NCBI GenBank assembly: GCA_963796685.1
Contig: CAWCMR010000020.1
Span: forward strand, 1-64,000
Reading direction: 5' to 3'
Length of the DNA stretch: 64,000 bases
Origin: an uncultured delta proteobacterium
Lineage (GTDB): Bacteria; Myxococcota_A; Polyangia; Fen-1088
The position numbers and the translations under genes were made by a program. Every line of letters begins with the position of its first letter. Within the stretch, counting starts at the first letter, position 1. Under the pieces are notes generated by a model. The model was not told the origin of the DNA, did not search any database, and saw only the letters and a program-made list of their open reading frames with translations. Of this stretch, positions 8,314 through 45,430 are shown piece by piece.

Positions 8314-9297
8314 CTACGGCACCTCGACGTGGTCGAACAGCTTGCGTACCACTTGTTCGGCGGTGATCTCCTCGGCCTCGGCCTCGTAGGTCAGGATCAC
8401 GCGGTGGCGTAGCACGTCGGCGCCGATGGCCTTGATGTCCTCGGGGGTGACGTAGCCGCGGCGGCGCAGGAAGGCGTGGGCGCGCGCGGCCGTGTTCAAG
8501 TAGATCGAGGCGCGCGGGCTGGCGCCATACTCGATGAAGTCGGCCATGTCGGCCATGCCGTAGGACTTGGGATCGCGGGTGGCCTGCACCAGGTTGATGA
8601 TGTAGTCGCGAATCTTCTCGTCGATGTAGATCTGGTTGATGACCGAGCGCGCGTGGGTGATCTGCTCCGGCGTCGCTGCCGGATTGGCCCTGACGGCTAG
8701 GCCCGTGGTCATGCGATCCATGATGGTGCGCTCGTCTTCCTTGCTCGGGTAGCCGACCTTGACCATCAACATGAAACGGTCGAGCTGGGCCTCGGGCAGG
8801 GCGTAGGTTCCTTCCTGCTCGATGGGATTCTGCGTGGCCATGACCAGGAAGGGATCGGGCAGGGCATGGGTGGTGTCACCGATGGTCACCTGCCGTTCTT
8901 GCATGGCTTCGAGCAGCGCCGACTGCACCTTGGCCGGGGCGCGGTTGATCTCGTCGGCCAGCACCAGATTGGCGAAGATGGGGCCCTTCTTGGCGATGAA
9001 TTCGCTGCGACTCTGGTTGTAGATGACGGTGCCCACGATGTCCGCGGGCAGAAGGTCGGGCGTGAATTGCACGCGCGAGAACTTCATCGACAGCGCGTCG
9101 GCCAGGGTCTTCACGGTGAGGGTCTTGGCCAGGCCGGGCACGCCCTCCAGCAGCACGTGGCCGCCGGTCAGCAAGCCGATAAGGATGCGGTCGACCATGG
9201 GCTTCTGACCCACGATGACCTTGCCCACCTCGGCGGACAGATTGTCCACGAAGGCCGACTGCTCCTGAACCATTTCGTTGATAACGCGAACGTCCAT
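8314..9297 (-). CDS. moxR: MoxR family AAA+ ATPase
   Basis: [67 protein letters not shown]. Confidence 0.95.
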   Translation of the reverse strand: MDVRVINEMVQEQSAFVDNLSAEVGKVIVGQKPMVDRILIGLLTGGHVLLEGVPGLAKTLTVKTLADALSMKFSRVQFTPDLLPADIVGTVIYNQSRSEFIAKKGPIFANLVLADEINRAPAKVQSALLEAMQERQVTIGDTTHALPDPFLVMATQNPIEQEGTYALPEAQLDRFMLMVKVGYPSKEDERTIMDRMTTGLAVRANPAATPEQITHARSVINQIYIDEKIRDYIINLVQATRDPKSYGMADMADFIEYGASPRASIYLNTAARAHAFLRRRGYVTPEDIKAIGADVLRHRVILTYEAEAEEITAEQVVRKLFDHVEVP

Positions 9298-9438
9298 CTG
9301 ATCTCCTCTAGGGGGCGTAGGAAACGATAAAGCGGGCGCCCTTACAACCTCAACTTGCGCTGTCGTATTCCCGTCCGCCCGCGCAAAGGAACGAGTTTGG
9401 TAGGCATTCCCCCGACTTTCACATTATCTTTGCGGTCC

Positions 9439-10104
9439 ATGTGCCTTTGCCGCCCCCCTGTCGTCATCGCCCTGCTCGGTTTGTGCGCAAGTTGCTCGGG
9501 CAACGGCGACGGGGCCGTGGCCTACGCGCCCATGCCCGACGCGGATCTTTCCGGCACCAGCGCGAATCCGGAGGGCACCGCCTACCCTGCGACGGATGTC
9601 GGCGGCCGGCCGAGAAGCGCCACCCAGGCCGGCCAGACCTTCCCCAATCTCACGCTCGAAGGCGTGCGCTCGGCGGCCACCCGGGACACCCCCGCCGTCG
9701 TGTCCATGGCCGAGTACTACGATCCGACGGGCGCCCGTTACGATCTCCTGCACGTCATCGCGCTCTTCATGTGGTGTCCGCACTGCAACAACGAAACCAA
9801 CAACTTGTCGACCCTCTCTGCCTGGCAAGCCGACCACCGCGTGGCCGTGGTCCAGATCGCCATGCTCGGCTACGGCAACGCCTCGCCTGGTTGGACCGAG
9901 CTGCAAAAGTGGGTCGGCGATCACAACCTGAGCTTCCCGGTTCTCGTGGACGGCCAGGGCGCCGAGCTCGGCCAGTACTTCTCGGTCAACTACGTGCCCC
10001 TCAACATCGTGGTCAACCCGCGAACCATGGAGGTTATTGCGGTGGATGTAGGCGAGGTCGACGACTGCCAGGGCTACGAGCAGGGGTTCTTGAATAGCCT
10101 GTAG
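9439..10104 (+). CDS. TlpA/redoxin-like thioredoxin-fold lipoprotein
   Basis: Lipobox-like LCASC, WCPHC active site, FPVLVD, VPLNIVVNPRTM (cis-Pro region). Confidence 0.7.
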   Translation: MCLCRPPVVIALLGLCASCSGNGDGAVAYAPMPDADLSGTSANPEGTAYPATDVGGRPRSATQAGQTFPNLTLEGVRSAATRDTPAVVSMAEYYDPTGARYDLLHVIALFMWCPHCNNETNNLSTLSAWQADHRVAVVQIAMLGYGNASPGWTELQKWVGDHNLSFPVLVDGQGAELGQYFSVNYVPLNIVVNPRTMEVIAVDVGEVDDCQGYEQGFLNSL

Positions 10105-10231
10105 GTCCGTCGCGCCATATCACTGCCAATGGGGCGGCGCGCGCGGCGAGGATTTCTGTTTTTTGCACAGAAATATTCCCATCTTCCCCCTACCTGTTGT
10201 TGAATGTCCGAAGACCAAACGAGAGGGTGAC

Positions 10232-11134
10232 ATGAACGCACGGAAATTTCTCAATGTTCGGGTTAGCTTGACGGTAACGGCCTTGGCTCTAAGCGGGGCC
10301 TTGGTGTTTTCAGCGATGACGACGTCGTGTGCCAGTAGCAGCGGCGGCAGCGGCGGCAACGGCGGTGGCGGAAGCGGGGGCGGAGGCTCGACCGGCGGCA
10401 CGACCGGCGGCAGTTGCGCCGACCCAGCCAGCGACGCCGTGAACTTCTGCAACGGCCAGGCTCAGGGCGTCATGACGGGCTATGCGTACATCGCCCTCGG
10501 CAAATTGGATACCGCGAGCGATCCAGTGTGTGCGCCTGATTCGGCGGACCTGAACACGACCCAGAACATCACCGCGGCTGGCACGGACCCCGGGGCGTGC
10601 CCGACGACCGGTACGACGGTGTGGCAGACATCCGATGCGCTCTGCATAACGGGCAGCATTCCTCAGTTGCCGGGATCGCCAACGCAAACTGACTACAACG
10701 ACAACTGGGGCCTCCAGATTGGCGTCAACACGGCCAGCCCACCGGCAACCGGTCCCGGATCCGGTACCCTGGGCAAGACCTACGCGACCATCGCGGCCAC
10801 CACAACCGGCTCGGTCACTCCGACCAACAACGCCATTCGCCTGGTCATTCACCTGGCGGGTACCCCTGACACTGACAATCCGTACTGCGCCACCATGTCG
10901 GCATCCGGCAAGGCCATCACGCTCACCTCGTTCAACACCCAATGCTGGAACGGCGGGAGTTGCGGCACTGTTCCCGCCTGTACGCCGGGAGCGGATCAGT
11001 CGAAGTGCTGCAATCAGCTCCAAGATTCGGATATTCCCAACATCGACAAGATCGGCATCCAGATCTCGTCGGACAACAAGTTCGCCTACGACGTCAAGAA
11101 CTACTGCCTGACCGGTTACCAGTTCGGCAACTAG
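10232..11134 (+). CDS. Secreted/lipoprotein with Gly-rich stalk and Cys-containing beta-sandwich (possible carbohydrate-binding domain)
   Basis: Signal peptide, SGGSGG linker, WGLQIGVN...IRLVIH...YCA...FNTQCWN...IGIQI; followed by a terminator. Confidence 0.6.
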   Translation: MNARKFLNVRVSLTVTALALSGALVFSAMTTSCASSSGGSGGNGGGGSGGGGSTGGTTGGSCADPASDAVNFCNGQAQGVMTGYAYIALGKLDTASDPVCAPDSADLNTTQNITAAGTDPGACPTTGTTVWQTSDALCITGSIPQLPGSPTQTDYNDNWGLQIGVNTASPPATGPGSGTLGKTYATIAATTTGSVTPTNNAIRLVIHLAGTPDTDNPYCATMSASGKAITLTSFNTQCWNGGSCGTVPACTPGADQSKCCNQLQDSDIPNIDKIGIQISSDNKFAYDVKNYCLTGYQFGN

Positions 11135-19464: not shown

Positions 19465-20820
19465 TCACACCCTCAGGATGAAGCGGGTTGGGTCTTCGAC
19501 GAGCTCTTTGATCGCGACCAGGAAGAGCACCGCCTCGCGCCCGTCGATGATGCGATGATCGTAGGACAGCGCCAAATACATCATGGGGCGAATGACGACC
19601 TTGTCGCCCTCGGCCACGGGACGCGGTTCGATGCGATGCAGGCCGAGGATGGCGCTTTGGGGGGGATTCAGAATCGGCGTCGAGAGCATGGAGCCGAACA
19701 CGCCCCCGTTGGAAATAGTGAAGGTCCCGCCGGTCAGCTCGTGGATGCCGAGCTTGCCCTCTTCGCCGCGGCTGGTGAACCCGGCGATGGAGCGCTCGAT
19801 CTCGGCCAAGCTCATGCGGTCGGCGTCGCGCAGCACCGGCACCACCAGCCCGCGCGTGGTGCTGACGGCCACGCCGATGTCGAAGTAGCCGTGGTAGACG
19901 AGGTCGTCGCCGTCCAGCGATGCATTGACCACGGGATAGCGGCGCAGGGCCTCGGCGCAGGCCTTGACGAAGAAGCCCATGATCCCCAGCTTCACGCCGT
20001 GCTGGGTCTGGAAAGCCTCCTTGTAATTGCGGCGCAGATCCATCAGCGCCTGCATGTTGATCTCGTTGAACGTGGTCAGGATCGCGGCGCTGTGCTGGGC
20101 CTCCAGCATGCGTTCGGCGATGCGGGCGCGCAGGCGGGTCATCTTGGTGCGCGTGGTCGGCCGAGGCGCCGGGGCGCCCGATTCCGACGGCGCGGTCTGG
20201 GTCTCGGAGAACTCCACCACCGTGGGCGCTTCGCCGATGTTGGACGCGAGCTGCGGCGAGTGCTCGAGGTGGCGCAGAACGTCTTCCTTGGTGATGCGGC
20301 CGCGCGGCCCGGAGCCCGTGATGTCGGCCGGGCTCAGCTTGTGCTCGTCGAGAAGTCGGCGCACGGCCGGGGCCAGGCCTTCCATCTCCGCCTCGCCGTT
20401 CCCGCCTGCCGACGGCACGCTGGCCGGCCGTGCGGGGGCCAAGGCGGGCGTGGGGGCGGGCGCGCCGGGCGCGGACGCCCCGGCAGTCGCGGCGGCGGAC
20501 TTCTTGGCCGGCGGTTGCGCGGTCTTGGGCGCCGTCTTCTTGGGCGCGGCCGCGGCGGCGGCCGGCTCGGCCTTCGTCGCACCGGCGGCCTCGATGGTCG
20601 TGAGCACATCGCCGCGTTTCACGCTGTCGCCCTTCTTGCGCAATTGCGGGCCGACAATGCCGGAAGCCGGCGCGGCGATTTCGAGCACGACCTTGTCGGT
20701 CTCGATTTCCGCCAGCGGCTCGTCGGCCTTGACCTCGTCGCCGGGCTGTTTGTGCCACGCCGCGAGCGTCCCATCCGCGACGGATTCCGGCAGCTCATTC
20801 ACTTTGACCTCGACGCTCAT
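19465..20820 (-). CDS. sucB: 2-oxoglutarate dehydrogenase E2 (dihydrolipoyl succinyltransferase)
   Basis: Lipoyl [11 protein letters not shown]3-binding [13 protein letters not shown], catalytic [13 protein letters not shown]. Confidence 0.96.
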
Positions 20821-20907
20821 CGACCAAGACCTCCTGAAGGGTACCGGACCCGGCTGTCCCGTCGGGCCGGCCGTTCTCGTTGGCGGTTACTATAACCCAA
20901 GACCGGT

Positions 20908-23748
<2,841 letters not shown>

Positions 23749-38717: not shown

Positions 38718-38898
38718 GAAGGGGAGAATTGCCCGGTCCATTGGGAAATAGTCCCGACGCCTGTTGCGATGGCACATCGCATTCCGCCTGTTTCCGCCAA
38801 TCCCGCTCAAACTGAAAGCGCGTGACGACGGGTACAGGCCATGTCGGCGACGATCCGCGATGGCAACGCTCGGAGGAAACCTCGGGGCAGTAGGAAGG

Positions 38899-40002
38899 TT
38901 ACTTGGTGGGCAGCGCGACGGGACCGGCCCCGGCGATGAGCACGCGCTCGATCTCGCCCGCCGGGCCGCTGGCGCCGCCGGACTTCCATCGCTGCAGCGT
39001 GTGCCCGCTGGTATTCAACACGACGAGCTCGCTGCCGGTAGCCACCCACACCCGCCCCGACGAGTCGACGGCGATGTCGTTGATTCCGTTCGTGGAGATG
39101 GCTTCGCTCGTGCTCGCGTCGCCCGCTCCGTCGAGGCGGGCGATGACGATGGCCCTGCCGTCGGCGCTCGTGCCGGCAAGCAGGTTGGCTGCCCCCGCGC
39201 TTTGCAAATGGGCTTTGTCCGCGCGCCAGTGCGAGGGCTGCCAACCCGCTTCCGTGAACACGAAGCAGCCCGCGAGGTAGCAGGCGATCAACCCTGGTTT
39301 CGAGACGAGCAAGGAGAGCGGAAAGGCAGGCGCCGACTTTGTCTCGGTGTCGGCCTGGTCGTTCTCGGACACTGCGGGCGAATCGAGTCGGGTCCACCTA
39401 CCACCCGTCACGCGCCAAAGGCCGTTCCAACTCGCCACCCATACCGCGCGTCCGTCGGTCACGATGTCGAGCAGACGGTTGTCGTCGAAGGCGCCCGCGA
39501 GGCTGTTGCGGGTGCGAGTGGTCTTCCAGCGGATGCCGTCGTAGCGCACGACGCTGCCGTGGTCGTCGTTGATGGTCCACACGTCGGTGGGCGAGCGGAT
39601 GGCCAGCTTGGCGAAGCTCTCATGGTTGAGGGTGACCGCCTTTCCATGGACGATTCGCACCACGCCCTCGCCGCGCAAGCTTGCCCACAGCATGCCTTCG
39701 CCGTCGAGCTGCATGTCGCGCAAGGTGGCCTGCGTCTTCAGGACCGTGGATATCTCGCCGTTCCGCAGGCGCTGGATGCCGACGCCTTTCACGAAGACAT
39801 AGGCGGCGTCCGTATGTTCGTCGACTGCCACCTCGGGCGCGGCGTCTGCAACCGCGGGCCGCGGGGCCGAGCTCTTGCGCTTGGACTGCGACTTGCCGTG
39901 GCTGCTCGACATGGCCCCGAAGAGCCCGACGGCGACCACCAGCAGCCCAAGCGAAACCCTCGGACCAGGTTGGCCGCGTCGACGGTGCTCGCTCCTCCAC
40001 AT
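38899..40002 (-). CDS. Exported beta-propeller-like protein
   Basis: N-terminal hydrophobic segment; repeats LD.EG.LWA, IVTDGRAVWVASWNGLWR, DIAVDSSGRVWVAT. Confidence 0.65.
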   Translation of the reverse strand: MWRSEHRRRGQPGPRVSLGLLVVAVGLFGAMSSSHGKSQSKRKSSAPRPAVADAAPEVAVDEHTDAAYVFVKGVGIQRLRNGEISTVLKTQATLRDMQLDGEGMLWASLRGEGVVRIVHGKAVTLNHESFAKLAIRSPTDVWTINDDHGSVVRYDGIRWKTTRTRNSLAGAFDDNRLLDIVTDGRAVWVASWNGLWRVTGGRWTRLDSPAVSENDQADTETKSAPAFPLSLLVSKPGLIACYLAGCFVFTEAGWQPSHWRADKAHLQSAGAANLLAGTSADGRAIVIARLDGAGDASTSEAISTNGINDIAVDSSGRVWVATGSELVVLNTSGHTLQRWKSGGASGPAGEIERVLIAGAGPVALPTK

Positions 40003-40024
40003 CGCGGCAGTATATACCTATCGA

Positions 40025-40337
40025 AATGGGAACCCTGGGAGGGTTCCCAACCCCTCCCGCGCTCTGGCTTCGCCGGGCAAAGCCCGGCTCCGCCTACGCG
40101 GTAATGGGAACCCTGGGAGGCTCGGCACCCGCCAGCCCGCCCTACCACCCCCGCGCTACGCGCGGCCTCGCCAACCCCTCCCGCGCTCTGGCGGAGGCGC
40201 GAGGGGCGCGTCCGAAGGACGCGAGGGGGAGGGCGTGGAGGTGTAGGTCCCGAAGCACCGACGAAGTCGGTGGGCAAAGCCCGGCTCCGCCTACGCGGTA
40301 ATGGGAACCCTGGGAGGCTCGGCACCCGCCAGCCCGC
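40025..40337 (+). repeat. Mosaic array of REP-like units (left part; third unit split by the transposon)
   Basis: AATGGGAACCCTGGGAGG units at 40025, 40103 and 40300, with GGGCAAAGCCCGGCTCCGCCTACGCGGT linkers. Confidence 0.85.
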
Positions 40338-40461
40338 GGCTTTGCCCAATGATTGAGCTTGACGCAGGAATTGCTGGGCAGGCGGGGGAATTATTGGGCA
40401 GACGTGATGCTGAACGGATGACGCGTAGCTGTGACTGGCGGGTGGGCGGTAGGGTTGAGCC

Positions 40462-41115
40462 ATGGTGGACATCTACGGCTTCCTGGTCGCCGTCCTCGAC
40501 CATTGGATCGGACTCATGAGCGGCATAGTCGCGCTTGTGTTCGCAATATGGCTTGACCGTACCAAACGGGCGTCAATTCCATCAAAGGTCTTCTGGGGAA
40601 TCGGAATCCTGTGCATTTTTGGAGCTTTCTATCAGACCTGGAAAGACGAGCATGTTGCACGTCTCAAAGCAGATGACGGTCCAAGGCTGGTCGGAGAATT
40701 ATCTGCCTTCTTTGAGTTTGGACCTGGAGAGTTGGACGGTGGGCCGGTAGTGGCTGTTTTGATGAAAATACGTAACCTCGGAACTCCAAGCAGCGCGGAC
40801 GCCTACCGGGTTTCCTTCAAGCTAGGTAACGCGGAGCGAACCATGGATATTGTCGTTGGTGATTCGCAAGAGAAGGTTGTTACGACCTTGAAGTCACGAG
40901 GATACAGGTCGACAGCAATGGACGTGGCTCTTCCCCTGCATTTTCCCGCAATCCAGCGAGGAGAAACGCTGAGCGGATACATCCTGGTCACGACCGGAGA
41001 GCTGACAAAAACAGAATTTGAGCAAGGCGAGCTGACGGTCGGATTCCGAGACGTCCTTGGACAACGGCATTTTGCGTCTGGCTCTTATCGAACCATGGCA
41101 AAACTCGGGCCGTGA
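40462..41115 (+). CDS. Transposon cargo: hypothetical protein with two N-terminal TM helices
   Basis: 217 aa: HWIGLMSG, FYQTWKDEH, then a beta-sandwich-like IRNLGTPS region. Confidence 0.7.
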   Translation: MVDIYGFLVAVLDHWIGLMSGIVALVFAIWLDRTKRASIPSKVFWGIGILCIFGAFYQTWKDEHVARLKADDGPRLVGELSAFFEFGPGELDGGPVVAVLMKIRNLGTPSSADAYRVSFKLGNAERTMDIVVGDSQEKVVTTLKSRGYRSTAMDVALPLHFPAIQRGETLSGYILVTTGELTKTEFEQGELTVGFRDVLGQRHFASGSYRTMAKLGP

Positions 41116-41382
41116 CTACGTTGGTCCTCTCCCGCAGTGCGGGCACGTCCCCTTGACCGGGTACTTCCCAGCGAGCAGGTCGTCCATCCCGACTCCGGCA
41201 AGGCGCGCTACCCGCACCATCATGGATGCGCTCACAGGGTCGTGGCCTAGGAGAACGCCGCGCATGCTCTCGTAGGTGAAGTGCAGGGCCTTGGCAAGCA
41301 GGTCGATCTTGCCGAAGCGAATCCGCAGGAAGCGGAGCGCTACCCGAACATTCCGTTGCTCCTCTGGCGTGAGGTCGCTCAT
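41116..41382 (-). CDS. Small XRE-like HTH protein with C-terminal CPHCG knuckle
   Basis: MSDLTPEEQRNVRVALRFLR...LAKAL....SM..VL.G....SASM..RVARLAGV.MDDLL.G...TCPHCG; starts 5 nt after the transposase stop. Confidence 0.7.
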   Translation of the reverse strand: MSDLTPEEQRNVRVALRFLRIRFGKIDLLAKALHFTYESMRGVLLGHDPVSASMMVRVARLAGVGMDDLLAGKYPVKGTCPHCGRGPT

Positions 41383-41387
41383 GCCGC

Positions 41388-42614
41388 TCACGCCGCCACC
41401 GTTCCCAAGAAGCTCGGCTCGATGCCCAGCCGGTGCATCGCCTGGACGAGCACCGAAAGGTTCTGGCAGAGCGCCTTGCACAGAATCTCGTTCACCTGGG
41501 CGGTGAAGGTCTTGGAGCGCACGGCATGACCGAACTTCCGCTTGACCGCCGAGAAGGTGCTCTCGATGTTGTTGCGCTTTCCGTAGGCGGCCAGGAACTC
41601 CTCTTGCTTGAACATGAAGACGGCGTGCATCTTGCGCCACGCGGGCGAGCCGTCGCTCTGGCTGTTGACCTTGAAGGGCACGAAGGGAGCGGCGCCAGCG
41701 GCTTCGATGGCGGCGAGGTTTTCGTGCGCGAGGTACGCCTTGTCGGCTGAAACCTCGGCGATGCCGAAGTGCTGCTTGGTGGCTGCGACCAATCCCGGAA
41801 GCTCGGGGCAGTCCGCGCCTTCGCTCGTGGTGACCTTGACCGATGTGATGACCTGGGTCGTGGTCCCGACCATCGCGTGCGCCTTGAGCCACGTCGCCTT
41901 CTTCATTTCCTTCCCGTACTTGGCATCGAACCAGCGGCGGTAGACGGCGGCGCTGAAACCCGTGGAGTCGACCGCGAAGCTCGTCTCGATGCTCGCCAGC
42001 GGCGCCGCGCTCTTCTCGATGAGGCTGGTCAGGATGGCCGTCATCTCAGGCTTCTCGAACGCGGCCAAGACGCTGTTGTAGTGCGGGGTTCGGGTCATGT
42101 TGCCAGCTTCGGCGCTGTCTTTGATGTCCGTGCTCGCTCGGCGAGCCGACATCGTGGTGTAGACTTTCAAGACCATCGCGTAGACCGCATCGGACATTGG
42201 GATCGGCTTGGGACCGCGGCCAGGGTGGGCTGGCGTCTGGATACCGTCGCAGAGGCCACGTAGCAGGGCCTGGACGGTCTCCTTCTCACCGACCTGGGCA
42301 GCGTTGTAGGCCGACCAGTCGCGCTCGGTGGTGTGGCTGTAGCTGAAAGATTGGGTCACGGTCTGGTTTCCGTGGGAGTCGGTCTCGACGGTCTGCGCGA
42401 ACGAAATCGCCCACTGGTGCTTGCAGCGGCAGCGGCGAAGCTCGAAGTCGGGACAGGTGCAGGTCTTTGCGGCGGTATTGACGACGTAGCCGCCAGCGTT
42501 ATGCGTCTGCGATGGGACAAGCCAGGTCACGCCAGCGATGTGCTTGATCCGGCGGTCGTTGGAAAGGATGCGTCCGCGCTCTTGCCGAAGGTCCGTTTCG
42601 TTCGTCGTGTCCAT
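41388..42614 (-). CDS. SWIM zinc finger + DDE transposase (IS5 family, IS903-like)
   Basis: SWIM CTCPDF....CKH; DDE FAVDSTG, WLKAH, SADKAY, Y.KRNNIESTFS.VKRKFG..VRSK....QVNE. Confidence 0.9.
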   Translation of the reverse strand: MDTTNETDLRQERGRILSNDRRIKHIAGVTWLVPSQTHNAGGYVVNTAAKTCTCPDFELRRCRCKHQWAISFAQTVETDSHGNQTVTQSFSYSHTTERDWSAYNAAQVGEKETVQALLRGLCDGIQTPAHPGRGPKPIPMSDAVYAMVLKVYTTMSARRASTDIKDSAEAGNMTRTPHYNSVLAAFEKPEMTAILTSLIEKSAAPLASIETSFAVDSTGFSAAVYRRWFDAKYGKEMKKATWLKAHAMVGTTTQVITSVKVTTSEGADCPELPGLVAATKQHFGIAEVSADKAYLAHENLAAIEAAGAAPFVPFKVNSQSDGSPAWRKMHAVFMFKQEEFLAAYGKRNNIESTFSAVKRKFGHAVRSKTFTAQVNEILCKALCQNLSVLVQAMHRLGIEPSFLGTVAA

Positions 42615-42622
42615 GTGGATAG

Positions 42623-42642
42623 TATTACCTAGCTAAGTAATA
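42623..42642. promoter_or_regulatory. Palindromic operator in the divergent transposase/Zn-ribbon promoter
   Basis: TATTACCTAGCTAAGTAATA is an 18/20 palindrome lying 8 nt from the transposase ATG. Confidence 0.55.
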
Positions 42643-42719
42643 TTAGCAAGGACAATCTACAGAGCAATAGTAGAAAGGTTTACTTTACTACGGAGGAGCG
42701 GGCGTGTATCCTGGCGGGC

Positions 42720-42902
42720 ATGGCTGAAATCATGATCAAGGTGCCGGGCTACCGCTGCGAGCGCTGCGGCCACGAGTGGGTGGCCAGGGCGTCGCGCAAC
42801 GCGCCGCAAGCGAAGAAAGGCGAGACTGCGCGCCCAAGGCTGTGCCCATCATGCAAGAGTGCATGGTGGGACGTAGCCCCGAAGAGCGAAGCGAAAAAGT
42901 AA
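42720..42902 (+). CDS. 60-aa zinc-ribbon protein
   Basis: YRCERCGHEW.AR...PRLCPSCKSAWWD (CxxC...CxxC); divergent from the transposase. Confidence 0.75.
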   Translation: MAEIMIKVPGYRCERCGHEWVARASRNAPQAKKGETARPRLCPSCKSAWWDVAPKSEAKK

Positions 42903-42910
42903 CCCGTTGG

Positions 42911-44035
42911 TTACTTCACAAGACGGATAGAATCTCCTGGATTTCCAGGCGTCGGTTGTATCCGATACGACGCAAGCAACTCCGGCGTGTTCCAGTGGGC
43001 GAGATCGGCCAACTGGTTGACGGTGTATCCGAGGGTTTCTGTGTGGAAGTCGAGCATCTCTTGAAGCGTTCTCGGTATTTCGCGAGCTGGCTCCAACTCT
43101 GCTGGCTCACGCATTCGATACCCCATTTTTGCAATCTGAACCCATAGGTATCGAGCTTGCGGTTCTGTTATGGTGCCGAGATTCTCGGCCCGTTTTAGAA
43201 GGGCCTGCATTGATACCTTCCAATAGGGCTTCATCGAGGCCAGCTTTTGCACGGTAAGATTGTGGAGTTGGCTTCGAATTTCTTCGGCCGGCATCAGGAA
43301 CTCGGCAGCAAAGGCGTTGGCCTCGTCTTCGATGTGAGGTGACAGCGTGGCATGCATAACCATGTGCCCGATCTCGTGGGCGAGCGTCAGGCGTTCGCGA
43401 TCTTGGGGGATTGTCTCATTCACAAAGAACATCGGCGGCAAGCCGGGAACCCACCTGCTTACAGCATCAACAAGGTTGGTCCCGAAAGCGAACCTCACGA
43501 CTACCCCGCCGGCCTCCTCGATGGCGTCAACCACACTCGCGACTGGCCCCTTTGGCAAGTTCCATGAGCTTCTCACCGCATGTGCGATCTCGGATGGAGA
43601 TCCTCCGAACTCCTCCGGATCCAATCGAGGAAACTTCTCTTCTTCAAGTTCGGCGCTCTTGAGGAAAGAAAATACGTGGGCCATGCGGATGTTTATCTGA
43701 GCATGGATGCGCGCCATTTCCCGCGCTGATGTCGCCTTACGCTTGCGATGATAGAACTCGCTCGTGCTCGGCCCAAAGATGCGGAACTCTTGCGAGAAGA
43801 AGCTCTCGGGATAGTCAAGCTCCGTGGCCAATGTCGACACCAGTTGTAGGGGAACTGGAGCATGTCCAGTCTCTATCTTCGATAGCCTTCCTTGAGAAAT
43901 GTTCAGTCTTTCCGCAAGCTCCTTCTGTGTCATCCCGCGCGACTCTCGCGCAAGGACGACCATCTCGGGTGTTATCGATTTCCAGAATCCGCCATTCGAG
44001 TCGTTCCCGTCGTCACTTCTTCTTGTTTGATTCAT
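42911..44035 (-). CDS. XRE-HTH + ImmA/IrrE (M78) zinc metallopeptidase
   Basis: LARESRGMTQKELAERLNISQGRLSKIETG; RERLTLAHEIGH; EDEANAFAAEFLMP; WKVSMQAL. Exact start uncertain. Confidence 0.9.
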   Translation of the reverse strand: MNQTRRSDDGNDSNGGFWKSITPEMVVLARESRGMTQKELAERLNISQGRLSKIETGHAPVPLQLVSTLATELDYPESFFSQEFRIFGPSTSEFYHRKRKATSAREMARIHAQINIRMAHVFSFLKSAELEEEKFPRLDPEEFGGSPSEIAHAVRSSWNLPKGPVASVVDAIEEAGGVVVRFAFGTNLVDAVSRWVPGLPPMFFVNETIPQDRERLTLAHEIGHMVMHATLSPHIEDEANAFAAEFLMPAEEIRSQLHNLTVQKLASMKPYWKVSMQALLKRAENLGTITEPQARYLWVQIAKMGYRMREPAELEPAREIPRTLQEMLDFHTETLGYTVNQLADLAHWNTPELLASYRIQPTPGNPGDSIRLVK

Positions 44036-44642
44036 CTGTTCTATCGACATCCGCGGCCTCCTGTTTTCTAGGCTTGACGCGGCGTTTTGCGCCCTTATCT
44101 GGTTGTTCCTGTGGAATCGGAATAACTTGTGCCCCACTGGGCGGTACGATCTGCATTGTCCAGTGCGGAGGGTTCTTCCCGTTGGGACAGGTAAGCCATA
44201 TCTCTGACGTCAAAAGCTCCGCTTGCTTCTCCTGTCGATATCCAAGGTGTAGGTTCGTTGGATCTGGAACTCCTTCCAAGGTGAGCTGACCTGCGTTCTT
44301 CAAGAAGGAAAACGTTTGCTGGGTCATCACGTTGGAGGTGCGAAAGTTTCGATCGAGCTTCTTTAACTTGATCTGGTACTTGTCTTCAACCGTCGCCACG
44401 AAGAGTTTCGATTTTCTCTCGAAGCACCTCACCCCTTCCGGATTCCCATCTGGGAAAGCCTGCTCCATATGCCACCGCATGAGATCGTGGATGAGCGATG
44501 CAATGGACCTGCTGGACATCTTGTGCCGAAGTCCCCGATAGTCCGCGACGAACTCTTTGAGTGCCGCGTGGACCACATCATGAAGCCTCGTAAGAACAGG
44601 CTTCAGATCCTTCTTCGCGGTAGCCACAGAACGAACCATCAC
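44013..44642 (-). CDS. Hypothetical protein co-transcribed with the HTH-peptidase (candidate toxin)
   Basis: 209 aa, stop abuts or overlaps the peptidase start; motif KKLD....SN..TQQ..F....Q.......NLHLGY; GAGGTG RBS. Confidence 0.75.
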   Translation of the reverse strand: MMVRSVATAKKDLKPVLTRLHDVVHAALKEFVADYRGLRHKMSSRSIASLIHDLMRWHMEQAFPDGNPEGVRCFERKSKLFVATVEDKYQIKLKKLDRNFRTSNVMTQQTFSFLKNAGQLTLEGVPDPTNLHLGYRQEKQAELLTSEIWLTCPNGKNPPHWTMQIVPPSGAQVIPIPQEQPDKGAKRRVKPRKQEAADVDRTDESNKKK

Positions 44643-44836
44643 TCACCTCAAATTTGTTTCATCCAAGGTACCATGGGAACACACAAACGCGCATAAAATA
44701 TTCCTAAAATATTCCATGTTGGTGTAAGTATTTGTTTTTGAAGTCTTTTTTCGCATCGCCGCAATGACATTTGGTACTATTGCGTTATGCTACCACGCCA
44801 TCTTGCGGATAGTCAGAATCGCGAGACAATGGCGAT

Positions 44837-45229
44837 ATGAGAAAGGTAGCTTGGCTTGCGCTGCCGCTGATCTTTGGCTGCACCACTCTCTCTCCGGAGC
44901 AACGCCGGGAACGAGACGAGGAGAATCAGCGGAGGGCCATGCGGCAGGAAATGGCCCAAGAACAGGCCAACAGGTGTCTTCAGGGGATGCCGATCCTTCG
45001 TGGCGATCCTCCCTACCAGTACCGCGTGATACAGGTGATCGAGGCTCAAGATGAAAGGGAACTCGTACAGGCTGCCTGCCAAGCGGGAGCGGATGCCGTG
45101 ATCTCAATCTTCACAGACAACGAAGAGACCACCACTACCGTCGGGGGCGGCCCCTATTTCGTTCGGGGTCGAACGAAGACCAAACACGCGCCGACGTTCG
45201 TCGGTCGCCTCATCGTGTACGCGCGGTGA
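44837..45229 (+). CDS. Small lipoprotein (YbjQ/RcsF-like GADAVI motif)
   Basis: Lipobox LIFGC; PYQY..I..I....L...A...GADAVI. Confidence 0.65.
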   Translation: MRKVAWLALPLIFGCTTLSPEQRRERDEENQRRAMRQEMAQEQANRCLQGMPILRGDPPYQYRVIQVIEAQDERELVQAACQAGADAVISIFTDNEETTTTVGGGPYFVRGRTKTKHAPTFVGRLIVYAR

Positions 45230-45317
45230 GCCTCGTTTTCTGAATTATTGGGCAGCCCGCCAAATTCGCCCGAATTAAAAGGCAGCTAGGCCGAAAAGCG
45301 AATCATTGGGCAAAGCC

Positions 45318-45430
45318 CCAGCCCGCCCTACCACCCCCGCGCTACGCGCGGCCTCGCCAACCCCTCGGCCCCTCCCCGCCACCCTCCTCCCCGCTCGCTT
45401 CGCTCGGCCTCGCGCGCTCTGGCTTCGCCA
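45318..45430 (+). repeat. Right part of the REP-like unit split by the transposon
   Basis: CCAGCCCGCCCTACCACCCCCGCGCTACGCGCGGCCTCGCCAACCCCTC is identical to the continuation of the intact unit at 40103-40180. Confidence 0.85.

Follow-up and report, generated by a model that had tools for sequence, protein, structure and literature searches.

An intact cargo transposon with a SWIM-bearing, IS903-related transposase in a polyangial genome, and the apparently unnamed family to which it belongs

Insertion sequences (IS) of the IS903 group are elements of about 1 kb with a single open reading frame (ORF), and IS903 itself moves both conservatively and replicatively. IS-like elements that carry passenger genes between IS-type ends are called transporter IS (tIS); to our knowledge, no IS903-related family of this kind has been described. 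Genes for defence and toxin–antitoxin (TA) functions usually travel on large islands, prophages, Tn7-like elements and elements of the Tn3 family. A further point of comparison is offered by the Mutator-like elements (MULEs), of which the MuDR-type proteins carry a SWIM finger C-terminal to the DDE domain. According to PMC6446971, MULEs produce duplications of 8-11 bp (typically 9 bp), often have a SWIM domain, possess subterminal repeats and tend to capture genes. In this paper we describe an element that shares features with IS903-type elements, tIS and MULEs, located at positions 40338-45317 of contig CAWCMR010000020.1 of an uncultured member of the Polyangia (assembly GCA_963796685.1); the whole stretch of 64,000 nucleotides that was analysed is called the window. 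We consider it very likely that it is an intact cargo transposon with an IS4/IS5-type DDE transposase that is closest to IS903-type enzymes and has gained an N-terminal SWIM module, and that it belongs to a large family with GGCTTTG ends, 9- or 10-bp duplications and variable cargo.

An earlier note on this DNA, made from the sequence alone, had claimed perfect 17-bp terminal inverted repeats and a perfect 9-bp target-site duplication, and both were recovered at the following coordinates:

40329-40337: target-site duplication, left copy, CCAGCCCGC
40338-40354, plus strand: terminal inverted repeat GGCTTTGCCCAATGATT, at the end downstream of the transposase gene
45301-45317, minus strand: terminal inverted repeat, the exact reverse complement of GGCTTTGCCCAATGATT (17/17), at the end upstream of the transposase gene
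45318-45326: target-site duplication, right copy, CCAGCCCGC
40070-40180: uninterrupted paralog of the targeted host repeat, with CCAGCCCGC once, at 40132-40140; model of the pre-insertion site, from repeat analysis and alignment

The element proper thus measures 4980 bp, and the span 40329-45326 takes in both duplications. The 17-mer GGCTTTGCCCAATGATT has no other site in the 64-kb window when up to two mismatches are allowed, there were zero matches to it in 100 dinucleotide-preserving shuffles, and throughout the source genome (7.3 Mb in 26 contigs, 88.6% complete) the element's two ends are the only sites with fewer than three mismatches. Outside the element, the 71 nt ending at the left junction and the 49 nt starting at the right junction recur contiguously in the paralog at 40070-40180. 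In a three-way alignment of this paralog with both flanks, the left flank runs up to CCAGCCCGC and the right flank begins with it, and its 9 columns are the sole columns common to all three sequences. Because the uninterrupted paralog has CCAGCCCGC just once, at the join, the 9 bp are a true target duplication. The GC content is 0.48-0.58 over the cargo versus 0.62-0.71 in the flanks. Positions 40338-45317 are an intact passenger-carrying unit transposon, inserted in one copy of a host intergenic repeat.

The enzyme expected to move this element is encoded by a single gene:

41388-42614, minus strand: transposase, 408 amino acids (aa), with an N-terminal SWIM module (C52, C54, C64, H66), a linker at about residues 88-97 and a DDE_Tnp_1 core (D216, D291, E351; Y344, R347, K358)

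A single transposase with a SWIM finger had already been read from the translation, and Pfam agrees with this, matching the core to DDE_Tnp_1 (1.4e-18) and the N-terminal part to SWIM (PF04434; 2.6e-4, 20.9 bits against a gathering score of 19.6). In an alignment of 39 family members with 7 IS5-family references, D216, D291 and E351 as well as the signature Y344-x2-R347-x3-E351-x6-K358 are invariant in all 46 proteins, and W100 and Y103 are common to the SWIM family and the IS903-type references. The pattern C52-x-C54-x9-C64-x-H66 occurs in 37-39 of the 39 family members and in none of the 7 references; in alignment A3, C52, C64 and H66 are invariant and C54 is nearly so. The AlphaFold (AF2) model of the transposase, with a predicted local distance difference test (pLDDT) score of 88, has a separate N-terminal module (1-88), a disordered linker (88-97) and the core, of which the best match in the PDB is Tn5 transposase (1MUH, E 1.1e-3, 387 columns). 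No MULE or Transposase_mut match was obtained with Pfam at E<=0.01, and no IS256 model in the NCBIfam scan.

Relatives of the transposase are numerous. A protein homology search gave 3477 matches; the best 120 of these, from which the figures for identity and length are taken, show an identity of 61% or more and a length that is mostly about 400-415 aa, carry only the name 'transposase' where they are named, and include proteins from Polyangia metagenome-assembled genomes. An exhaustive search of representatives (clusters at 50% identity) yielded 818 at E<=1e-30 and 2524 at E<=1e-10, mostly of 400-440 aa and aligned from about residue 8 to 402. The earlier note had made its reading depend on homologs having equivalent distant inverted repeats and 9-bp duplications, and relatives do possess them. 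Taking as bounded those elements whose GGCTTTG-type tips belong to matching inverted ends and which are flanked by an exact duplication, the loci divide as follows:

genome-derived, window included: 22 distinct loci, 15 bounded, 15 independent, 3487-9791 bp
metagenome contigs: 80 loci, 12 bounded, 10 independent, 2724-6170 bp
IMG/VR viral contigs (viral according to the IMG/VR classification): 25 loci, 15 bounded, 15 independent, 3345-6688 bp

There are, accordingly, 40 independent bounded elements including that of the window, with sizes from 2724 to 9791 bp. The duplication is 9 bp long in 34 and 10 bp in 6 of them, and the tips are GGCTTTG-type in all except L059, which is GGCCTTG-type. Duplicate records were recognised as such (L045 is the same record as L013, L093 repeats L046 and L143 repeats L142), and an element split over L015 and L014, with matching 9-bp flanks, was left out of the count. 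None of the 40 is a bare IS: no bounded element is smaller than 2.7 kb, and the core of ends, transposase and small gene (see below) would by itself occupy some 1.8 kb. Two candidates for cargo-free forms, L122 and L124, with tips about 1.7 kb apart, were rejected, as their left tips match the right ends over 8-9 nt and no duplication is present. The position of the transposase in the middle, with cargo on both sides, which had been described for the window element, is correct for that element and does not extend to the family: in 6 bounded relatives, representing 5 independent insertions, 45-60 bp separate the end of the transposase from one end of the element.

A few individual loci deserve mention. 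One IMG/VR contig of 122,834 bp, predicted to be viral or proviral, carries three family transposases (L174, L178 and L188) that are 43-45% identical to that of the window, and among these solely L188 is bounded, by 20/20 inverted ends and a 9-bp duplication. Locus L144 (106-3947) has good inverted ends with GGCTTTGCACAATAAC on both sides, and flanks that are near reverse complements instead of direct repeats, which suggests that two copies have undergone an inversion between them or that the assembly is at fault. On a viral contig, L166 (5312-9537) encodes a transposase 61% identical to the window's and has a terminal 18 nt, GGCTTTGCCCAATGATTC, that is the same as the end in the window; since this end matches despite the modest identity of the proteins, the ends are far more conserved than the protein.

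The ends of the window element consist of more than the terminal repeats:

40368-40401: the inner motif twice in subterminal position, GAATTGCTGGGCAG at 40368-40381 and GAATTATTGGGCAG at 40388-40401, inverted relative to the adjacent terminal repeat
45242-45255: the inner motif in subterminal position, GAATTATTGGGCAG, oriented like the terminal repeat beside it
about 45273-45284: a further, degenerate copy of the inner motif

Each end thus possesses approximately three copies of a 12-nt motif that corresponds to the inner portion of the terminal repeat. In the end that lies upstream of the transposase gene, all copies have one orientation; at the other end the two subterminal copies share that orientation and hence are inverted relative to their own terminal repeat. 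A mirror-image arrangement is found in L058 and L059. The motif varies among elements (e.g. TGCCCAATGATT, TGCCCGAGAATT, TGCATCAAAAAG and TGCTCAGCAACT), and within each element the terminal and subterminal copies agree, a pattern that is expected of putative binding sites evolving together with the protein that recognises them.

Directly after the transposase gene and on the same strand lies a second conserved gene:

41116-41391, minus strand: conserved small gene (88-91 aa) with an XRE/Cro-fold helix-turn-helix (HTH) and an invariant C-terminal CxxC; its start overlaps the stop codon of the transposase gene

It is present in 12 of the 15 genome-derived elements, with a disrupted C-terminus in L047, and in 6 of the 15 elements on viral contigs. 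The six relatives in which the transposase gene ends close to the element end have no room for it. In an alignment of the small proteins L4, E8, Q9, V12, R13, G46, C80 and C83 are invariant. The predicted structure (pLDDT 88) is a five-helix bundle, and its top PDB matches are all DNA binders of the XRE/Cro type (ClgR, C.BclI, C.AhdI and P22 c2); the scores are weak (E 0.03-0.3, template modelling score 0.5-0.6), so that the model is consistent with an XRE-type fold. A prediction of the complex between transposase and small protein scored 0.07, the mark being 0.32, and speaks neither for nor against binding. This gene, the subterminal repeats and the host-repeat flanks go beyond what the earlier note had reported.

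The remaining genes of the window element are cargo:

40462-41115, plus strand: 217 aa, hydrophobic in its N-terminal half and by inspection a likely membrane protein, with no significant family
42911-44137, minus strand: fusion of an XRE HTH and an M78 (ImmA/IrrE) peptidase, RmrA-like, RmrA being the antitoxin/regulator of RosmerTA; the true start is probably downstream of the first GTG
44013-44642, minus strand: 209 aa, no known family, directly upstream of and overlapping the RmrA-like gene
44837-45229, plus strand: 130 aa, by inspection with an N-terminus resembling a signal peptide with lipobox, no family

Seven ORFs had been counted within the element, which is approximately right: we regard six genes as credible, besides some short and doubtful ORFs. 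The RmrA-like protein of 408 aa is matched nearly end to end by 14 PADLOC RmrA models (best E 1.9e-61, profile positions 2-323 of 363), and by HTH_3 and Peptidase_M78 in Pfam. According to PMC10440598, RmrA is the antitoxin of the RosmerTA anti-phage defence systems, composed of an HTH and an ImmA protease, and the RmrT toxins are diverse. The window resembles this system both in the HTH-ImmA/M78 protein that matches RmrA and in the presence of an unrelated small gene directly upstream, as with the RmrT genes (PMC10440598); it differs in that the 209-aa upstream protein matches no RmrT model. By lying directly upstream of and overlapping the RmrA-like gene, the 209-aa gene occupies the position of the toxin, and with toxins as diverse as RmrT the lack of a match says little against RosmerTA. 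In the ESM Atlas the 209-aa protein found solely clusters of 'hypothetical protein', and the RmrT-like gene of L046 is not similar to it. Judged by these matches and by gene order, the cargo probably includes a RosmerTA module, a reading left incomplete by the 209-aa ORF, which matches nothing.

Between the elements of the window, L012, L013 and the split L014/L015, only the transposase and the small gene are common. The cargo annotation covers 13 of the 40 bounded elements, namely that of the window and 12 other genome-derived ones (for L052 and L063 it stops at two ORFs, and the metagenome and viral-contig elements are outside this set). The cargo is distinct in each of the 13 and mostly of TA, defence or regulatory type:

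L046: XRE-M78 fusion, an upstream gene matching RmrT (4.9e-11), DUF3800
L059: XRE-M78 fusion
L013: SocA/Panacea antitoxin, ParA-like ATPase
L053: SocA/Panacea antitoxin
L047: PemK/MazF toxin, P63C-domain protein
L050: AAA_21/AAA_15 ATPase matching HEC-01A, AriA and AbiLi models
L056: N6/N4 DNA methylase
L058: DUF4238
L057: DUF2779
L054: ClpP-like protease
L061: XRE regulator
L012: nested IS3-family element at 9234-10459

The nested element in L012 has an OrfB with an rve integrase core and HTH_21 and an OrfA-like ORF, and accounts for part of the 7.4-kb length of its host.

Regarding the origin of the transposase, a comparison with true IS903-type elements was made possible by L066, where such an element occupies 20053-21109 (1057 bp, 18/18 inverted repeats starting with GGCTTTG, 9-bp duplication). 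The window element has the same first 7 nt at its tip, in agreement with the likeness of ends and duplication to the IS903 group that had been pointed out earlier. Against the NCBIfam models, among which NF033579 represents the IS903 type and has a cutoff of 140 bits, the proteins scored as follows:

L066 IS903-type, ISEc35, ISGNB1-1 and ISSod12: best model NF033579, 352-384 bits
haloarchaeal IS5-family protein: best model NF033579, 201 bits
Paraburkholderia IS5-family protein: best model NF033579, 168 bits
ISKpn26 (IS5 group): best model NF033581, 366 bits
window transposase: best model NF033579, 123.7 bits
five SWIM-family relatives: best model NF033579, 106-128 bits

All six SWIM-family proteins tested therefore fall under the cutoff of NF033579, and since the family lies just below it, relatives have been annotated only as 'transposase' and their boundaries have stayed unmarked. 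Collections of plasmids and phages gave solely distant matches of the IS4/IS5 family, with 21-31% identity, the best named relatives on plasmids included. In a quick IQ-TREE tree of the core region, unrooted, with just 7 references and with long branches flagged, the 39 SWIM proteins cluster together, separate from the IS903-type clade, with a support of 80 in the Shimodaira-Hasegawa-like approximate likelihood-ratio test (SH-aLRT).

How the element would move can be sketched from these features. The transposase may bind the 12-nt inner motif, with three copies at each end, most plausibly by means of the SWIM module, since this module is what the lineage has added to the enzyme. The two ends, which differ in structure, would then be synapsed and the element cut out or copied, after which integration would occur at a 9-bp and occasionally a 10-bp stagger in the target, as it does with IS903-type elements. 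The small XRE-fold protein could act as a DNA-binding regulator or as an architectural factor. Since the cargo comprises a RosmerTA-like TA/anti-phage module and two envelope proteins, the element would work as a shuttle for defence genes.

Several observations weigh against this picture. The element is single-copy in its source genome and no transposition event was observed; in the same class, a match at E<=1e-30 occurs in 24 of 301 genomes, with 1-2 matches each. A share of the loci did not yield a bounded element, namely 7 of the 22 genome-derived ones (L048, L049, L051, L055, L060, L062 and L064), 68 of the 80 on metagenome contigs, which are mostly too short, and 10 of the 25 on viral contigs. 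At least three loci have good inverted ends and lack a duplication (L051, with 3 in-frame TGA codons, L087 and L161). The small gene is not essential to the family, as it was not found in 3 of the 15 genome-derived elements (L057, L061 and L063) and 9 of the 15 on viral contigs. The presumed toxin of 209 aa has no match in PADLOC (RmrT models included), Pfam or NCBIfam. Finally, that the SWIM module and the small protein have binding roles is an inference.

It might be held that the element is nothing but an IS903-group member of the IS5 family that acquired passengers, i.e. a tIS and no separate lineage. The GGC ends, with their first 7 nt as in a real IS903-type element, the 9-bp duplication, the DDE_Tnp_1 core with its Y-R-E-K catalytic signature, the common W100 and Y103, and NF033579 as best model for 6/6 SWIM-family proteins all speak in its favour, and a tIS, too, would have one IS-type transposase, short inverted repeats with passengers between them, and a duplication. 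Yet we find it rather unlikely. Scores of 106-128 bits contrast with the 352-384 bits of IS903-type references, and the 39 SWIM proteins stay outside the IS903-type clade, although this tree has 7 references and long branches. Whereas IS903-type elements are about 1 kb long and have one gene for a protein of about 305-322 aa without SWIM, that of L066 being bounded by an 18-bp inverted repeat, the window element has 5 kb, six genes, a 408-aa SWIM enzyme with 21-31% protein identity to that type, another conserved gene, the motif in triplicate at each end, and passengers, and no element of about 1 kb was found among the 40 bounded ones. Cargo looks here like a rule of the family (40/40 at least 2.7 kb, versus a core of about 1.8 kb) and not like an occasional derivative. 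The proposal of the earlier note, a passenger-carrying SWIM-fused lineage of IS5/IS903 elements, holds for the cargo transposon and for the nearest model and is not supported as to membership of the IS903 group. We read the sequences as those of a SWIM lineage that stands beside the IS903-type elements, as their sister or as an outlier, and that would have kept their end tip and 9-bp stagger.

The other explanations are less attractive. A SWIM domain and a 9-bp duplication would fit a Mutator/IS256-like element, but we consider this highly improbable: the catalytic domain belongs to DDE_Tnp_1 and bears the Y-R-E-K signature of IS4/IS5, neither MULE nor IS256 models match, the best fold match is Tn5 transposase, and the SWIM module is N-terminal instead of in the C-terminal position of MuDR-type proteins. 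The likeness to MULEs, as these are described in PMC6446971, comprises SWIM on a DDE transposase, duplication length, subterminal repeats and the carriage of genes; the DDE superfamily, however, is Mutator/IS256 in MULEs and IS4/IS5 here, and the resemblance is one of convergent domain recruitment, not kinship. That the locus is a decayed or domesticated relic of an old insertion, in which the 'transposase' has another role or none, seems improbable, even though the single copy, the patchy, low-copy distribution and the existence of pseudogenes such as L051 would agree with it. The ends (17/17) and the duplication are perfect, the ORF is intact with every catalytic residue and zinc ligand kept, the GC content is below that of the host, the closest genome found lacks the element at the syntenic site, and relatives occur at unrelated sites with perfect duplications of their own, three copies being present on one contig. 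Recent activity, as claimed from the intact ends and duplication, is plausible on that basis, two sparse sequencing runs having given no junction or empty-site evidence. It is next to inconceivable that unrelated repeat copies, e.g. pieces of the host repeat with GGGCAAAGCCC, bracket ordinary genes by chance. The flanks are indeed repetitive, and 11 nt of the host repeat match the tip of the inverted repeat, but the copies of the host repeat show 3 differences over the 17 positions of the inverted repeat and have no inner motif, the same architecture recurs at 39 other independent loci with unrelated flanks, and the intact paralog has exactly one 9-mer at the join.

With respect to novelty, no description of a SWIM-bearing IS5/IS903 transposase or of an IS903-type cargo transposon was found in the openly accessible full-text literature, a scope outside which ISfinder, TnCentral and most subscription journals fall. 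The suggestion that the lineage may be uncatalogued is in line with this and with relatives being named only 'transposase'; it is apparently a large family without a name, and an earlier description is possible. The chances appear to us about even that it constitutes a widespread family of small unit transposons, hitherto undescribed and akin to IS903 yet distinct from it, with a SWIM-fused DDE transposase, a coupled XRE gene, polar triple-repeat ends and an obligatory, variable TA/anti-phage cargo, serving as dedicated shuttles of defence genes in soil Myxococcota and their relatives and also on proviral DNA, in which SWIM would be an independent prokaryotic counterpart of the Mutator pairing. 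The family is simple, with one IS-type transposase and short ends, it is abundant (818 clusters), and passengers were present in every bounded copy found. If active, it could provide a compact natural chassis for gene delivery to high-GC soil bacteria, and position between GGCTTTG ends could serve as a marker for new defence genes. An active element would also be a tractable system for the role of SWIM fingers in transposases, a question that is still open for the eukaryotic Mutator elements.

The genes next to the element are ordinary chromosomal ones, encoding an AraC-type regulator and a GH53 glycosidase. In the closest genome found (G305) the flanks are about 88-90% identical and the flanking genes are 274 bp apart, compared to 5422 bp in the window, and the element is absent from this syntenic locus. 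It was rejected as a nucleotide-exact empty site, as its spacer is an unrelated sequence without the host repeat. Two soil-metagenome runs that were checked for reads over the junctions or the empty site contain just 0.08 and 0.05 of the sampled words; they gave short contigs of the host repeat and of transposase relatives with 90-95% similarity, and a few near-identical cargo pieces of 151 nt, and no contig from these two sparse runs bridged either junction. Two read 'joints' that skip about 5.3 kb were also rejected as an empty site, since their sides are 26-29 nt long and lie in repeat sequence and one has foreign letters in between; they speak neither for nor against an empty site.

The host repeat itself belongs to a family with 77 genome matches to a unit of 121 nt. 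It is modular, in part forms tandem arrays (periods of about 80, 196 and 372 bp), and is located in the window at 40020-40337 and 45318-45430 and in G000 at C13:11037-12030, C25:2111460-2113264 and C21:64336-67888. Its modules include a hairpin, GGGCAAAGCCC, whose reverse complement forms the first 10-11 nt of the transposon end, and a palindromic GGGAACCCTGGGAGGGTTCCC module. Three of 25 bounded elements (at 40329 in the window, at 3476-3484 in L012, and in L050) lie within 120 nt of host-repeat modules, at differing positions, and the host-repeat motif has 5 matches in 5.8 kb of flanks versus 9 in 263 kb of background, all 9 background matches being in the window itself. Such insertions may reflect a target preference or tolerated sites, the cases being too few and the loci too related to decide between the two. 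To the left of the element, two long ORFs overlap on opposite strands, at 38764-40104 (plus strand, 446 aa) and 38899-40002 (minus strand, 367 aa). The 446-aa ORF has no Pfam match, and the conservation with G305 covers 38899-40014, which fits the minus-strand ORF of 367 aa.

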